A stretch of DNA of 64,000 bases, taken from a bacterium (GTDB lineage Bacteria > Zhuqueibacterota > Zhuqueibacteria > Residuimicrobiales > Krinioviventaceae). The stretch lies in contig CAXXMD010000002.1 in NCBI GenBank assembly GCA_963675755.2, positions 2,385,405-2,449,404 of the forward strand. The letters are read 5' to 3'. Below are positions 1,800 through 6,743 of the stretch, piece after piece. Within the stretch, counting starts at the first letter, position 1. Every line of letters starts with the position of its first letter. Below the pieces are notes generated by a model that was not told the origin of the DNA, made no database searches, and saw nothing but the letters and a program-made list of their open reading frames with translations. The translations under genes and the position numbers were made by a program.

Positions 1800-2171
1800 T
1801 TAGGCCAATACTTGTTCCATTGCATTAAACAAACGTTCATCTACAATGGGTTTTACAAGAAAAATGGATTCGGAATCTTGTTCAAGCCTGTCTAATGTAC
1901 GCTTGTCTGAATTACCGGTAAGGTATATTATTGGAATTGAAAATTCCTTACGGATGTTTGTGGCCGTTTCAATTCCATCCATGTCCCCTCGTAAGCCAAT
2001 ATCCATAATAACAATATCTGGCCCATATTCTTTGACACTCTTTAAACAATCTTTACCTGAATTTACAACAGCAACAACATTGTATCCTTTTTCATTCAGC
2101 TTTAATTCAGTATCCAAAGCAATAATTGCATCGTCTTCGGCAATAATTACCCTAGCTTTATCGTTGTTCAT
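1800..2171 (-). CDS. Single-domain response regulator (REC)
   Basis: IIAEDD, PDIVIMDIGL, DGIE, IPIIYLT and FLVKP receiver motifs. Confidence 0.92.
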   Translation of the reverse strand: MNNDKARVIIAEDDAIIALDTELKLNEKGYNVVAVVNSGKDCLKSVKEYGPDIVIMDIGLRGDMDGIETATNIRKEFSIPIIYLTGNSDKRTLDRLEQDSESIFLVKPIVDERLFNAMEQVLA

Positions 2172-2332
2172 CGATCACTCCGTATTATTTCTATCTTAAA
2201 ACTTAAAAGTACAGATGTCTATTCCATAAAAAATCAACAAAAAACATCATATTCAAGCTTACATGACATCGAAATAGGAATTTCCTTACAACAAAATACG
2301 TAATTTTCCCTATTTCATTTTTGAAATCAGTG

Positions 2333-2341
2333 TGTTATATT
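2333..2341 (+). promoter_or_regulatory. Putative extended -10 promoter (TGnTATATT) for the ncRNA candidate
   Basis: TGTTATATT at 2333-2341 ends about 7 nt before the first stem of the structured element. Confidence 0.45.
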
Positions 2342-2347
2342 TAATCA

Positions 2348-2511
2348 GTTAGTTAACGCAAGCAGTAATGCTTATATGTCACCCCCGGTACTGGCGACCC
2401 CCCTAAGCTGGTACTGAGACATCTTTTATGCGTTAACGACTTAATGCCAAGCGTCATCCCCGGTACCGGTGACCCCCCTAAATCGGTACTTAGACGGCTT
2501 GGCATTTTTTT
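2348..2511 (+). ncRNA. Putative structured small RNA with two GACCCCCCUAA-loop hairpins (6C-like), ending in a U-tract
   Basis: Closing stem GTTAACGCA/TGCGTTAAC; AAGCA-GTAA-TGCTT GNRA hairpin; two ~43-nt repeat units (2378-2420, 2453-2495) with compensatory and G-U pairs; terminal stem ATGCCAAGC/GCTTGGCAT followed by a T-run. Confidence 0.75.
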
Positions 2512-2526
2512 ATTATATGCAATTTT

Positions 2527-4038
2527 TTAATAAATTGCCTCACCAATTTCAAGCACAATATCAATCCTACGATTTTTACGGCGACCATCTTCTGTTTCAT
2601 TACTGGCTATCGGTTTACTTTTTCCATAACCAATGCTCTGTATTTGTTCAGAAGGCAAGCCCATATTGGCTATTAAATAAGATTTGACAGCATTTGATCG
2701 CTGTTCGGAAAGTTTCTGGTTTGCGGCATCGTGCCCTCTCGAGTCGGTATGACCTTCAATAACAATAGGCGCATTGGGGAACTCTCGTATTGCTCGCTGT
2801 ACCTTGGTCAGCAATCCAAAATAACCGGGCTCAATAACACTCTTACCTGATGCAAAATTCAAACCCACCAAACGAATAACAAGGTTGGTGCCTTCGCGTA
2901 GAACAACCGCTTCCTGAGGCGCGTACATATCTTCAATTCGTTTAATCTTGGCTTCCTGACGTTTCTTGGCTTCAAGTGTCTCTTTCAGGCCCGCTTCCTG
3001 TTGTTTGCTTACATCCAGTTCAGCGGTAAGCTTGCGATTTTTTGACATGCTTTCATCGAGCTCTTTGTTAACCCGTTCCAATTCTTTGCGCAATTCAATT
3101 TTATCATCAAGGGACGCAGCAATTGCCAGATGGAGCGATTCCATCGCCGGTTGCATACCATTGTCGTACTGTACATCCAGCTTCATGGTATTAGAAACGG
3201 TTGAAAGATTGTCTTCAAGATCCAGAAATATCTTTTCCCAACTGTCTTCTTCTTTCCGGTTTTTTTGAATCAAATCCGAAAGAAAAATAGCATGATTGGC
3301 TTCGTATTCCGCTTCTTCGGCTTTTTCTCTGGCTGTAGACTGGGCGCTGCGGTCGGTATTGAGAATATTCTCAGCCTCTTGCAGTAATACTTTGGCCCGG
3401 TTGTAGGTTCGGGGGGCATAACGATCTGCTTTGGTTTCTTTGGCCTTGTCCAGGAGTAAATGCACCTTGCCAATAATGCTGGCCTTGATAGCATTTAATT
3501 CAGCTTGACGATAACGATCTTCACCATCTTTGGCTTTTTTAATTGCGTTATTGATATCATTATCTTCAATCTCTTCCATTGCATCTTTAAAACTGCGTTC
3601 TGCCTGTTCGTACAATTCTAAAGAAAATTCAGGGGCATTGGCAATCAATGCATCATCACGCGCCTGAATTAAAAAAGGAAGCTGTTTTTTAGCTTCTTTG
3701 GCATTACCAATTGCTTTTGCAAGATACTCTTCAGCACGATTTAAATTCTTTTGGATGCTTTTCACATCCCTGCCACGCTCAAGATCCAGTTTGGCTTCAT
3801 CAAAATGCCGTTGGGCCCGTTCAAAATCATTCGGTGACAATACATGAACCTGGAGTGATTGAGCATCTTCAAGGACGTGCTCAATGTCAACCAATTTTTG
3901 GTTCATTTGAGCCAATATACCCTGCTCACCAGCCTGCGCAAAAACAGAACCAGGAGCAGAAACCAGCACAATGAACATGATCAACATAAAATAATAAACA
4001 GGCAAGCTTTTGCTGCCATTTCTCAAGACTAAAGACAT
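2527..4038 (-). CDS. OmpA-family peptidoglycan-binding protein with long helical N-terminal region
   Basis: Signal peptide; C-terminal LNFASGKS, IEGHTDSRG, NQKLSEQRS, GYGKSKPIASN, RRKNRRIDI. Confidence 0.92.
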   Translation of the reverse strand: MSLVLRNGSKSLPVYYFMLIMFIVLVSAPGSVFAQAGEQGILAQMNQKLVDIEHVLEDAQSLQVHVLSPNDFERAQRHFDEAKLDLERGRDVKSIQKNLNRAEEYLAKAIGNAKEAKKQLPFLIQARDDALIANAPEFSLELYEQAERSFKDAMEEIEDNDINNAIKKAKDGEDRYRQAELNAIKASIIGKVHLLLDKAKETKADRYAPRTYNRAKVLLQEAENILNTDRSAQSTAREKAEEAEYEANHAIFLSDLIQKNRKEEDSWEKIFLDLEDNLSTVSNTMKLDVQYDNGMQPAMESLHLAIAASLDDKIELRKELERVNKELDESMSKNRKLTAELDVSKQQEAGLKETLEAKKRQEAKIKRIEDMYAPQEAVVLREGTNLVIRLVGLNFASGKSVIEPGYFGLLTKVQRAIREFPNAPIVIEGHTDSRGHDAANQKLSEQRSNAVKSYLIANMGLPSEQIQSIGYGKSKPIASNETEDGRRKNRRIDIVLEIGEAIY

Positions 4039-4062
4039 AATACCTCCCCTCTCCTTCTTTTT

Positions 4063-4458
4063 TTAATGAGGTAATGTAACTTTTGTCAAAGCTTCTCTCA
4101 AGTTTTCAGGTGTTACCGGCTTTGTTAAATACCATTCACACCCTTCATTAAATGAAGACATGATATCTTTGACATCATTTTTAATTGTAATCATTAAAAT
4201 CTTGGCTTCCTGAGAAAACTTTACCTTATTATCAGTTTCCCATTTGCGGATATGATGAACCACCTGCTGTCCTGACATATCTGGCATTTCGATATCCATA
4301 GTAATCAAATTATAGGGGTCAGAATCTTTATGTGCTTTTTCAAACATAGACAGAGCTTCTTCACCATTCGGAACCGCGTCACACGTGCCATACTCAGACA
4401 ATAACGCCTGCAATTTTGTACGGCTCACGTAATCATCATCCACAACCAATATCCTCAT
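4063..4458 (-). CDS. Single-domain response regulator (CheY-like)
   Basis: MRILVVDDD, LITMDIEMPDMSG, YLTKPV. Confidence 0.93.
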   Translation of the reverse strand: MRILVVDDDYVSRTKLQALLSEYGTCDAVPNGEEALSMFEKAHKDSDPYNLITMDIEMPDMSGQQVVHHIRKWETDNKVKFSQEAKILMITIKNDVKDIMSSFNEGCEWYLTKPVTPENLREALTKVTLPH

Positions 4459-4481
4459 TGCTTACTCCTTTCAGTTGGAAA

Positions 4482-6743
4482 TTATTTTTTATTATTGATA
4501 TATTCTGTTAAATTATTTGCTTCAGTCTGAAAGGACTGAAAATAATCTTGCATATTCATTGTGTTATTTACCAGCGCACTCTCTTCAATTTTTTCTGCCC
4601 AACTTGCAAGTGGCATTGCCGTAAGATTGGCTGCACCGCCTCTAATTTTATGAGCTTCTGCAGCAAGTTTTTTCAAATCATTCTCTGCCAACGCCTGTTC
4701 AAACCGGGCTAACTGGTTTTTCACATCAACTAAAAAATGTTCCAAAACATTATCAAGGACCGTTTGGTTTCCACCAAATTCTACAATGGCTCGCTCATAA
4801 TCAATAGGTTTATGATTATTGGCGACTGGTTGTTCTTGATCTATTGGAACACTATTGTTTTCTATAATTATTTCATCATTTCCGGGCATCCATTTTTTTA
4901 CCTGGTATACAAATGCTTTTCTTCGCAAAGGTTTTACCAGTACATCACTCATACCCAATTCTTTACACTTTTGTCTCGTTGCAGAATCTGCATGAGCCGT
5001 TATGGCCAGAATAGGCACATTTTTATAATAGCTAACTGAATTACGTATTTTTTGTGCTGCTTCATAACCACTCATTTCCGGCATTTGCAGATCCATTAAT
5101 ACCAGGTCATATTGGTTGTTTTTGCACAATTCTATTGCGTCTTTTCCATTGTCAGCAGTATCAATCTTGTAATCTGATTCATTCAAATGCTGCAATGCTA
5201 CCTGCATGTTGGGGTAATAATCATCTACAATTAAAATCCGTCCCTGTCCTGAACCGGCCGCAAGCGGCATTATCACTTTTTCTTCTATATTTTCAACCGT
5301 ATTAGTATATACTTCCATTGGAAGTACAAACCAAAAGTGACTCCCTTTTCCTGGTTCACTTTCCAGAAAAATTTGGCCGTTCATCAAATCCACAAGTTGA
5401 TAAGCAATTGTAGTACCCAGACCTGTACCACCATATTTTCGGGTAATACTTCCATCTGCCTGTGTAAAACTTTTGAAAATATCTTTTTGTTTATTTTTAG
5501 GAATACCTATACCTGTATCATGAACGTGAAATTCAATACTATGCAGTTGGTCATTAATGTTTTCAAAAGCTACAATAACCTTTACATAACCAGATTCAGT
5601 AAATTTCACAGCATTACTGCACAGATTCATTAAAATCTGAAGCAGGCGAAGTTCATCTCCCAGGTATACCAACTGATTTTTATTATTAATTTCAATTTCA
5701 AATTTCAAATTTTTAGCATCTGCAAGTATTTTAACACTCTTGCTCAGCTTTTCCATTATATGCCTTAAACTGAACGGTCTTTTTTCAATCAGCATCTTTC
5801 CGGCTTCAATTTTTGCCAGGTCCAAAAGATCACTGATTAATAAAAGCAGCATTTCAGATTGTTCCAATACTGTTCCAGCATGATCATAAATATGATCAAG
5901 CGAATTTGAATTCAATATAGATTCAGAGAATCCAATAATCGAGTTCAATGGAGTACGCATTTCATGAGACATATTGAAAACAAACTGCGACTTTAATCGG
6001 TTCGCATCTTCTGCTACCTTTTTTGCATGCCTTAGATTCTCTTCTGCCTGTTTTCGTTCAATATATGCACCCAGCATTTCACTGGCTGTCTGTAAAACTC
6101 TCAAATCCACTGAACGCCATTTTTTCTCACGATTATTGTCAACAAAACAAATCATACCATACCACTCTTTGTTAACAAAAATAGGAATTACCAACAAAGA
6201 TTCAATTGATAACTCTATTAAAAATTGCCTTTCAGTTTCATTAAACTCGCCTGTCACACCAAATATGGGATTCCGGGAACTCAATTCAGTTTGCCATCTC
6301 TGCAATCCTTTTGAATAACGCAAGGGAGACAATAATTTGTTTTTCACCTGACTGTGAAAGCCTCGGGAACAACGTTCGTTTGTTACCCTTGCACCCAAGC
6401 CCCATTTATAATTATGGTTTTTTAATACCCATACACGGCTAACACCAACTGACTGTTGCAAAAATTTGAGTCCCGTATCAACTGAATCTTTTTGAGTTAC
6501 CAGCAAAGCCTTTGAAAAATTCGCAAGTCCTTCTTCATAACGAAGACGGATCGCAAGCGCGTTTTGAGCACTTTGCTTTTCTTCAATTTCCTGATTCAAC
6601 TGCTCGTTAATATTGGCAAGCTTTGTATAGATCTCGTAATAATTTTTACGGGCAGTTTCGTATTCTTCCTGGGTCAACTGGAGATCATTATTCAGGTGCT
6701 TAATTTCTGTTTCCAGTAAATGTATCTTTTGTTTGTGTTCCAT
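4482..6743 (-). CDS. Hybrid sensor histidine kinase (GAF-HisKA-HATPase-REC-HPt)
   Basis: NMSHEMRTPLN H-box, NLCSNAVKFT N-box, DTGIGI, YGGTGLG, receiver VLMDLQMPEMSG, HPt AHKIRGGAANL. Confidence 0.95.
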   Translation of the reverse strand: MEHKQKIHLLETEIKHLNNDLQLTQEEYETARKNYYEIYTKLANINEQLNQEIEEKQSAQNALAIRLRYEEGLANFSKALLVTQKDSVDTGLKFLQQSVGVSRVWVLKNHNYKWGLGARVTNERCSRGFHSQVKNKLLSPLRYSKGLQRWQTELSSRNPIFGVTGEFNETERQFLIELSIESLLVIPIFVNKEWYGMICFVDNNREKKWRSVDLRVLQTASEMLGAYIERKQAEENLRHAKKVAEDANRLKSQFVFNMSHEMRTPLNSIIGFSESILNSNSLDHIYDHAGTVLEQSEMLLLLISDLLDLAKIEAGKMLIEKRPFSLRHIMEKLSKSVKILADAKNLKFEIEINNKNQLVYLGDELRLLQILMNLCSNAVKFTESGYVKVIVAFENINDQLHSIEFHVHDTGIGIPKNKQKDIFKSFTQADGSITRKYGGTGLGTTIAYQLVDLMNGQIFLESEPGKGSHFWFVLPMEVYTNTVENIEEKVIMPLAAGSGQGRILIVDDYYPNMQVALQHLNESDYKIDTADNGKDAIELCKNNQYDLVLMDLQMPEMSGYEAAQKIRNSVSYYKNVPILAITAHADSATRQKCKELGMSDVLVKPLRRKAFVYQVKKWMPGNDEIIIENNSVPIDQEQPVANNHKPIDYERAIVEFGGNQTVLDNVLEHFLVDVKNQLARFEQALAENDLKKLAAEAHKIRGGAANLTAMPLASWAEKIEESALVNNTMNMQDYFQSFQTEANNLTEYINNKK

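Follow-up and report, generated by a model that had tools for sequence, protein, structure and literature searches.

A putative two-component-linked small RNA with C-rich loops represents a new RNA family in an order of the candidate phylum KSB1 (Zhuqueibacterota)

Small RNAs (sRNAs) with C-rich or UCCC motifs that stand under two-component control include LhrC1-5 of Listeria and RsaE/RoxS of Firmicutes, which occur as sibling or tandem copies and carry several single-stranded, C-rich motifs regarded as mimics of the anti-Shine-Dalgarno sequence. The C-rich loops of the mycobacterial RNA 6C (B11) pair with the G-rich ribosome-binding sequence AGGGGGG of panD and with other G-rich 5' regions, a pairing that needs no chaperones, that is, neither Hfq nor ProQ (PMC6486639). 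Here we analyze a 64,000-nucleotide stretch of DNA from a member of the Zhuqueibacterota (contig CAXXMD010000002.1 of GenBank assembly GCA_963675755.2), referred to as the window, and within it a putative 164-nt sRNA gene at positions 2348-2511 of the plus strand, its start inferred from the -10 element and its end from the U-tract. Like 6C, this RNA has two hairpins whose loops contain at least six cytosines, and neither Hfq nor ProQ was found in its own genome, which is 98% complete. Like LhrC and RsaE, it displays several C-rich motifs, occurs in multiple copies, and has a two-component regulator as its putative controller. We regard its resemblance to 6C, RsaE, and LhrC as analogy, not homology. 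Our overall reading, on which our confidence is evenly balanced, is that the locus encodes a trans-acting sRNA of about 164 nt that belongs to a new, order-wide family, would be activated by a linked regulator, and would act in the manner of an anti-Shine-Dalgarno sequence.

The predicted minimum free energy (MFE) of the plus strand is -59.9 kcal/mol, whereas shuffled sequences average -38.5 (z -5.77); none of 200 shuffles was as stable. The minus strand folds more weakly (z -2.61). The MFE structure of the plus strand reproduces the architecture that an earlier, sequence-only reading of the locus had described, and every element named in that reading is in its place (Table 1). Both 11-nt apical loops are identical (GACCCCCCTAA). 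The compensatory stem changes reported in the same reading do exist, albeit compensation within the window is modest, since a comparison of the inner stems of units 1 and 2 by eye yields one full compensatory change (C-G to U-A) and three one-sided changes of the wobble type. By itself, the repeated 11-mer is not significant, with 14 of 100 shuffles giving at least two matches at one mismatch or fewer, and we consider the decisive support for the RNA to be comparative rather than to come from this repeat. A simple promoter and terminator scanner reported neither element at the locus; the terminator was missed because the rule of the scanner allows loops of at most 8 nt, and both elements are read here from the sequence and its conservation. 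The closing stem and GUAA hairpin were seen only in this genus, where a second genome carries a GCAA loop instead of GUAA. Taking the comparative data below into account, we are almost certain of the gene, its strand, its structure, and its family.

Two copies of a modular unit of about 70 nt, which elsewhere occurs singly or in tandem, make up the RNA. Each unit consists of an outer terminator-like stem, typically (A/U)GCCGAGCGUC ... GACGGCUCGGCA, a 5' internal loop A(C/U)CCCC, a freely varying inner stem of 8-9 pairs, and a near-invariant apical loop, YGACCCCCCUAAR, followed by a U-tract. For 27 units picked by eye as structured and aligned with MAFFT (alignment A1), RNAalifold gave 16 pairs, of which 14 show compensatory changes. 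The covariance model built from A1, R1, finds four units at three loci in the window's own genome (83.6, 81.1, 50.8, and 47.3 bits), and the remaining matches there (E ≥0.014) are short terminator-like pieces of 37-46 nt. The loop 11-mer also occurs four times in this 6.48-Mb genome, twice here and once at each of two other loci, which are single hairpins of like design, each with a U-tract after it. In a second alignment, A2, of 53 units, 93.1% of cells pair, as opposed to 74.0 ± 0.8% after shuffling and 28-47% after sliding of the partners, and in 16 of the 17 pairs both sides have changed; A2 was fitted to the model, which favors structure, and the MAFFT alignment gave the same picture. G-U pairs are frequent in A2 (for example, in 20 and 13 sequences at two pairs) and would be A-C on the opposite strand, which fixes the strand as the sequence-only reading had argued. 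Its expectation that the loop would be conserved in relatives was likewise borne out.

Relatives of the RNA were detected by BLAST in 19 of 41 related genomes. R1 (E ≤0.001) matched 48 of 151 sampled genomes of the phylum, the counts being 34 of 36 within the same order and 13 of 114 elsewhere in the phylum. One match outside the order was checked by eye and comprises two adjacent units with the loop UAACCCCCCUAAU (L107, family f7); the other model matches outside the order have E values from 1e-7 to 1e-3. Units are arranged singly, as tandem genes about 160-260 nt apart and up to three in number, or fused with two per transcript, as in the window. Two or three units lie head to tail with no terminators between them at four further loci of other lineages (L093 in G038 C223, L019 in G002 C287, L015 in G022 C178, and L107 in G046 C1), so the dimeric form has either arisen repeatedly or is old and has often been lost. 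A third, divergent unit of 85 nt lies at L072 (G000 C3:1615449-1615533, minus strand). Its internal loop is ACCCCUCC, its apical loop is unchanged, and it lacks a dyad-box promoter. Several relatives have units of the same length, matched at E values from 1e-5 to 1e-8, and in G003 such a unit adjoins the regulator described below.

An exact-pattern scan with one genome per species returned 35 loci, 17 of which R1 confirms; the other 18 are unstructured and lie in G+C-rich DNA. By record title, seven of the confirmed loci belong to candidate division KSB1, three to "uncultured Cytophagia," three to "bacterium," and one each to Calditrichota, Desulfobacterales, and Actinomycetota, with a same-genus chromosome in addition. 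Most of the confirmed loci are the same sequences as loci of same-order genomes. The Actinomycetota-titled metagenome-assembled genome (L067, a 3.7-kb scaffold) and the Calditrichota-titled record (L039) score identically, at 74.9 bits. The inconsistent titles, including order-mates titled Cytophagia or Desulfobacterales, probably reflect binning or labeling errors.

The extended -10 element before the RNA and the U-tract after it, both noted from the sequence alone, are conserved in relatives, and the former proved to be part of a longer promoter. The upstream regions of R1 matches gave 52 distinct stretches, and their usual layout is a palindrome, GT(A/C)AGG-N5-CCT(T/G)AC, then AATAC(A/G)G..TTTCC(C/T)(T/G)ATTG, then, after exactly 20 nt, TATATT, followed by a leader of 5-45 nt and the hairpin. 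We kept 27 distinct promoters that fit a loose pattern, had a spacing of exactly 20 nt, and came with 45 nt of sequence upstream; five pattern matches (L104, L070, L034, L080, and one of L105) were dropped by eye as spurious, so this selection was not blind. Their consensus is t.aG.aa.tTCCttACa..AaAATACag.aTTTTCCcTATTG-N20-TATATT, and the TTG that ends the proximal box sits at the start of the -35 position, 17 nt before the -10 element. Symmetry of the distal dyad was seen in 90 of 162 cells, compared with 32-60 for shifted centers and 67 ± 4 (maximum, 81) for column shuffles, and thus its two halves change together. The proximal dyad (88 of 162 cells, compared with 25-53 for shifted centers) owes its symmetry to conserved columns only, with no covariation.

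An nhmmer profile of the 27 promoters has one match in the window's own genome, at C2:2387668-2387752 (window 2264-2348; E 4.1e-14), the next match having an E value of 0.059. The implied activator would thus have the sRNA described here as its only such promoter in the genome. The neighbors of the units vary and include tyrosyl-tRNA synthetase, GroEL, a penicillin-binding protein, transaldolase, a MetH-like protein, and OmpA, and they are often convergent, as in the window. With a promoter and a U-tract terminator of its own, both independent of the flanks, the locus has the layout expected of a trans-acting sRNA. The earlier suggestion of an independent plus-strand sRNA gene with C-rich loops is upheld. 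A search for public sequencing runs listed three of the DNA type, all from one study, and none of RNA. The modular dimer, the activator-type promoter, and the two-component linkage had gone unremarked in that reading.

The linkage emerged from a Pfam scan of the nearest frames at 36 loci, 13 of which have a regulator of 214-226 amino acids with a receiver and a GerE domain (NarL/LuxR type), located immediately upstream of the unit on the same strand at a distance of 66-186 nt. The second locus of the window's own genome is among these 13 (regulator at C2:963003-963656). A search of the 151 genomes with this regulator found matches of 206 bits or more (50% identity or more) in 31 of the 37 genomes of the same order, G115 and G149, both unpublished, counting in this tally only; one further same-order genome has a contig-cut fragment with 59% identity, and the best match outside the order scored 196 bits. 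At 16 of the 30 best regulator loci, at least one unit lies directly downstream on the same strand. A kinase with PAS, HisKA_3, and HATPase_c domains precedes the regulator in 27 of 27 loci with room upstream (one of them contig-cut), and in the window's own genome the kinase gene overlaps the start of the regulator gene. The 27 box promoters all come from regulator-bearing genomes, save for one record outside the sampled set. The genomes of L105 and L106 (both of genus g8) and of L107 (family f7) have no regulator match at E 1e-20, and at these loci the boxes are absent and the -35 hexamers, TTGATT and TTGACA, are better.

Several observations weigh against such control. The link consists of adjacency and co-occurrence among related, non-independent genomes; 14 of the 30 regulator loci have no unit within 1.5 kb, the copy beside the regulator in the window's own genome has a degenerate box only, and some copies in regulator-containing genomes have no box. 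Furthermore, the regulator falls below every NCBIfam equivalog cut-off (MctR, 208 of 300 bits; NarL, 173 of 250), including that of the UvrY/SirA/GacA model (152-160 bits; cut-off, 280), and by its sequence we would call it a NarL-family protein and nothing narrower. On balance, the promoter and gene context make it likely that the linked NarL-type regulator controls the sRNA.

Considering these data, we propose the following model. A dimeric activator bound to the dyad boxes at about -67 and -44 would most likely drive transcription, and the best candidate for this activator would be the NarL/LuxR-type response regulator of the conserved PAS/HisKA_3 kinase-regulator operon; that operon lies directly upstream of an RNA copy in many relatives and at the second locus of the window's own genome. 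Each unit of the transcript would display two single-stranded C-rich motifs, the A(C/U)CCCC internal loop and the invariant GACCCCCCUAA apical loop, and the last unit would double as the intrinsic terminator. Acting as anti-Shine-Dalgarno mimics, the C-rich loops would pair with the G-rich ribosome-binding regions of several mRNAs and would thereby block translation without Hfq or ProQ.

The 3' end of the 16S rRNA carries the canonical CCTCC, and Shine-Dalgarno pairing is therefore used in this organism; the exposed RNA motifs CACCCCC and GACCCCCCUAA resemble the anti-Shine-Dalgarno CACCUCC of that end. In our own crude gene calls (4,991 long frames), 47 genes have at least five G in a row in the 18 nt that precede the start. 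Five of these 47 runs (10.6%) follow a TTA, which is complementary to the UAA of the loop; in coding sense the rate is 0.8%, and elsewhere it is 1.7% (p 1e-4 and 0.002 by Fisher's test). Two of the five genes are paralogues. The top candidates with a site at the Shine-Dalgarno sequence encode DUF975, Wzy_C, YkuD, GT4, and FtsX proteins, two type IX secretion system (T9SS) PKD proteins, a FadL-like protein, and others; by impression, they may be envelope-biased. A plain count of G-runs before any start codon did not discriminate. The pattern TTAGGGGG-N3-11-RTG is rarer in the 41 genomes than its backwards control because TAG is rare, and a Markov expectation fits.

Other results speak against pairing of this kind. 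In a duplex scan of the 4,991 5' regions (≤ -14 kcal/mol), the loop had more sites on sense strands (101 genes) than on antisense strands (52), and no more than the reversed loop (117) or some shuffles (30-89); the scan is uninformative. The OmpA gene, convergent with the sRNA gene and named in the sequence-only reading as one possible target, is rejected as a conserved target, its site (-14.1 kcal/mol) ranking 87th of 4,991 and being absent from all 26 orthologues outside the genus. DUF975 (3 of 41 genomes) and a 157-amino-acid protein (6 of 41) are encoded by accessory genes of narrow distribution that have not retained the site. Nor is TTAGGGGG avoided in mRNAs (15 observed, 12.8 expected), and among 20 places that we selected visually from roughly 150 listed across the 41 genomes, 10 began a frame of at least 50 amino acids; 8 of these frames were scanned and revealed no recurring family. 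The kinase-regulator operon, as a feedback target, has no strong site, and there was no conserved target among the candidates that we followed up. Finally, the invariance of all 11 loop bases, not just the cytosines, also fits recognition by a protein. As the target tests other than the TTA count were negative or uninformative, we infer the base-pairing mode from anatomy and precedent; anti-Shine-Dalgarno-like pairing with G-rich ribosome-binding sites is our best guess, and one that could equally well prove wrong.

Two further observations were made during the target search. A stretch of about 400 nt, shared by two genera (L201 in G003 C23 and L202 in G007 C371), is 91% identical, far above the level implied by protein divergence, and carries TTAGGGGG(G)AAAACCGGATG before a frame of 63-77 amino acids that matches no Pfam family; the stretch may be mobile or may have been transferred recently. 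In G010, the 16-mer TTAGGGGGGCCATATG occurs three times within 8 kb (C2:227505, 230769, and 235476), an arrangement that points to a local repeat or to an array of paralogous genes.

Could the RNA instead belong, as a divergent member, to the actinobacterial 6C RNAs or to some other known family of C-rich sRNAs? The two hairpins with at least six cytosines per loop, as implied by the name 6C (PMC6486639), speak for this, and the GACCCCCCUAA loops conform to that definition, a likeness in form only. However, at gathering score no Rfam 15 family matched the sRNA locus or 12 related loci, and in the whole window only the rRNA operon and tRNAs matched; at E ≤10, window 2200-2560 gave four matches (best E, 1.2), none at gathering score and none to 6C or any other C-rich sRNA family. 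Unlike in 6C, each unit functions as a terminator and has a further internal loop that is conserved and C-rich, and the modular unit, its variable copy number with tandem genes, and the dedicated activator-type promoter linked to a two-component system set the RNA further apart. The confirmed matches are mostly KSB1-titled, the one Actinomycetota-titled scaffold equals the Calditrichota-titled record in score, and the other actinobacterial pattern matches are unstructured chance matches; the genome itself has a G+C content of 39-40%. Model searches and taxonomy thus exclude membership in 6C, and we consider this explanation extremely improbable: the earlier label "6C-like" holds as an analogy of C-rich loops and fails as an assignment, the architecture and the phylum being different and no sequence or covariance-model similarity being found. 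LhrC and RsaE are unrelated in sequence and fold as well, and here the regulator is of the NarL/LuxR type, is paired with a HisKA_3 kinase, and has its gene adjacent in 16 of 30 loci. The idea that the RNA might be only an elaborate terminator or attenuator of its neighbors, or a repeat resembling repetitive extragenic palindromes or miniature inverted-repeat transposable elements (REP/MITE), with no function in trans, draws on the stem and U-tract that end every unit, on the 16 loci at which a unit follows the regulator gene on the same strand, and on the second locus of the window's own genome, where 66 nt separate the unit from the regulator gene upstream and 19 nt from a TPR gene downstream. 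Yet, between the upstream gene and the hairpin, most copies carry a conserved promoter of their own, the flanking genes differ from copy to copy and are frequently convergent, the apical and internal loops are invariant although a terminator needs neither, and four units at three loci in 6.48 Mb are not a dispersed repeat, in agreement with the sequence-only reading, for which dispersed copies would have meant a REP/MITE element. These features make a mere terminator or repeat very unlikely.

We take more seriously, and still consider unlikely, the possibility that the RNA titrates a protein, its identical C-rich loops serving as decoys for an RNA-binding protein of the KhpA or RRM type in a Gac/Rsm-like manner. 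It is a serious alternative because of the invariance of the whole loop, the multiplied loops, the unique promoter, and the Gac/Rsm-like regulator class and box. The 11 bases of the loop hardly change from family to family, whereas the stems are free to vary, and units are multiplied both within RNAs and as tandem genes, up to three in a row. The linked regulator combines a receiver and GerE like GacA/UvrY, the UvrY/SirA/GacA model being among its best matches, below the cut-off, and the distal box, GTAAGG-N5-CCTTAC, resembles the Pseudomonas upstream activating sequence TGTAAGCATTCTCTTACA, whose half-sites are given as TGTAAG-N6-CTTACA (PMC4353343). The multi-hairpin sRNAs of the Gac/Rsm (BarA-UvrY/CsrB) system also have repeated identical loops, a palindromic upstream box whose half-site is similar to the GTAAG..CTTAC seen here, and a regulon seemingly restricted to them; here, too, the promoter occurs once in the genome, as for a dedicated sRNA regulon. 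A conserved mRNA target was not found among the candidates examined, and RRM_1 and KhpA-type proteins are encoded in the genome, one of each. On the other hand, no candidate protein is linked to the RNA by position or co-occurrence, and each RNA has only two to six C-motifs, which is within the range of the base-pairing sRNAs RsaE, LhrC, and 6C. In contrast to Gac/Rsm, the spacing of the half-sites is off by one base, a second box overlaps the -35 position, and the kinase is a plain PAS/HisKA_3 protein, not tripartite like GacS/BarA. The classical partner, CsrA, is excluded because the RNA has no GGA anywhere in 2348-2511 and because csrA lies in a flagellin-FliW-CsrA operon; the loops of the 53 aligned units are C-rich. 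That operon (L109, G000 C2:1006252-1009410), followed by a gene for a TPR protein, is an example of a FliW-partnered CsrA in a KSB1-type genome. By analogy, kinase, regulator, and RNA might even constitute an independently evolved Gac/Rsm-like sequestration circuit in the Fibrobacterota-Chlorobiota-Bacteroidota superphylum, with an RNA that only titrates a global C-loop-reading protein, a scenario that strikes us as improbable. In such a circuit, the C-rich code GACCCCCCUAA would be read by KhpA- or RRM-type proteins, candidates for replacing Hfq and ProQ; if true, protein and RNA would form a new recognition pair, and the circuit would be the first posttranscriptional switch of global reach in an uncultured phylum. 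We continue to prefer a regulator-activated, base-pairing sRNA.

The window also contains signaling genes around the OmpA-domain gene (1800-6743; Table 1), and we found nothing beyond position to tie them to the RNA. The TopA/OmpA context of the RNA is found once more, in another genus (L086). A complete rRNA operon (16S, two tRNAs, 23S, and 5S) lies at 51230-56336 on the minus strand, and a further tRNA gene is located at 59080-59163 on the plus strand.

Table 1. Features of the sRNA locus and neighboring genes in the window. Coordinates of R1 matches were converted from genome coordinates; box centers assume a start 7 nt after the -10 element.
Feature	Position	Strand	Details	Basis
Distal dyad box	2273-2289	+	AATAGG-AATTT-CCTTAC, center ~-67	Conserved block, 27 aligned promoters
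Proximal dyad-like box	2296-2313	+	ATACGT-AATTTT-CCCTAT, center ~-44, abuts -35	27 promoters
Weak -35-like hexamer	2313-2318	+	TTTCAT, 17 nt before -10	Sequence
Extended -10	2333-2341	+	TGtTATATT (TG 2333-2334; TATATT 2336-2341), 7 nt before proposed start	Fixed spacing, 27 promoters
5' domain	2352-2437	+	Closing stem around GUAA hairpin and hairpin unit 1	MFE, centroid
Closing stem	2352-2360/2429-2437	+	GTTAACGCA/TGCGTTAAC	Sequence, MFE
GUAA hairpin	2360-2373	+		Sequence, fold
Hairpin unit 1	2376-2422	+	Match at 2367-2439	R1 47.3 bits, E 1.4e-7
Unit 1, internal loop	2381-2386	+	ACCCCC	
Unit 1, inner stem	2387-2395/2407-2415	+		
Unit 1, apical loop	2396-2406	+	GACCCCCCTAA	
Hairpin unit 2 (terminator unit)	2443-2506	+	Match at 2442-2520	R1 81.1 bits, E 2.6e-16
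Unit 2, outer stem	2443-2455/2494-2506	+		
Unit 2, internal loop	2456-2461	+	ATCCCC	
Unit 2, inner stem	2462-2470/2482-2490	+		
Unit 2, apical loop	2471-2481	+	GACCCCCCTAA	
U-tract (intrinsic-terminator tail)	2505-2511	+	T7	Sequence; U-tract in nearly all of 53 aligned units
Single-domain receiver	1800-2171	-		
OmpA-domain protein	2527-4038	-		
Second receiver	4063-4458	-		
Hybrid kinase	4482-6743	-	GAF-HisKA-HATPase-receiver-Hpt	Best NCBIfam model BarA, 379 of 890 bits (below cut-off)

In conclusion, the locus represents a new sRNA family of a known type, putatively two-component controlled and with C-rich loops, and a regulatory RNA family for candidate phylum KSB1. None was found described in the literature searched: among the matches listed (titles and abstract openings) for KSB1/Zhuqueibacterota, which concerned metabolism or ecology, and for KSB1 with "small RNA," there was no regulatory RNA, and the matches listed for the loop sequence included none that was relevant. 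The covariance model can be used for annotating these genomes. Sensor kinase, regulator, promoter boxes, and RNA would make up a compact, testable signaling module, unusually well defined from sequence alone, whose parts are small enough to be rebuilt in a laboratory host. As an independent case of an RNA with C-rich loops, in a lineage remote from both Actinobacteria and Firmicutes, the family bears on the question of whether bacteria that lack Hfq and ProQ repeatedly arrive at anti-Shine-Dalgarno mimicry.

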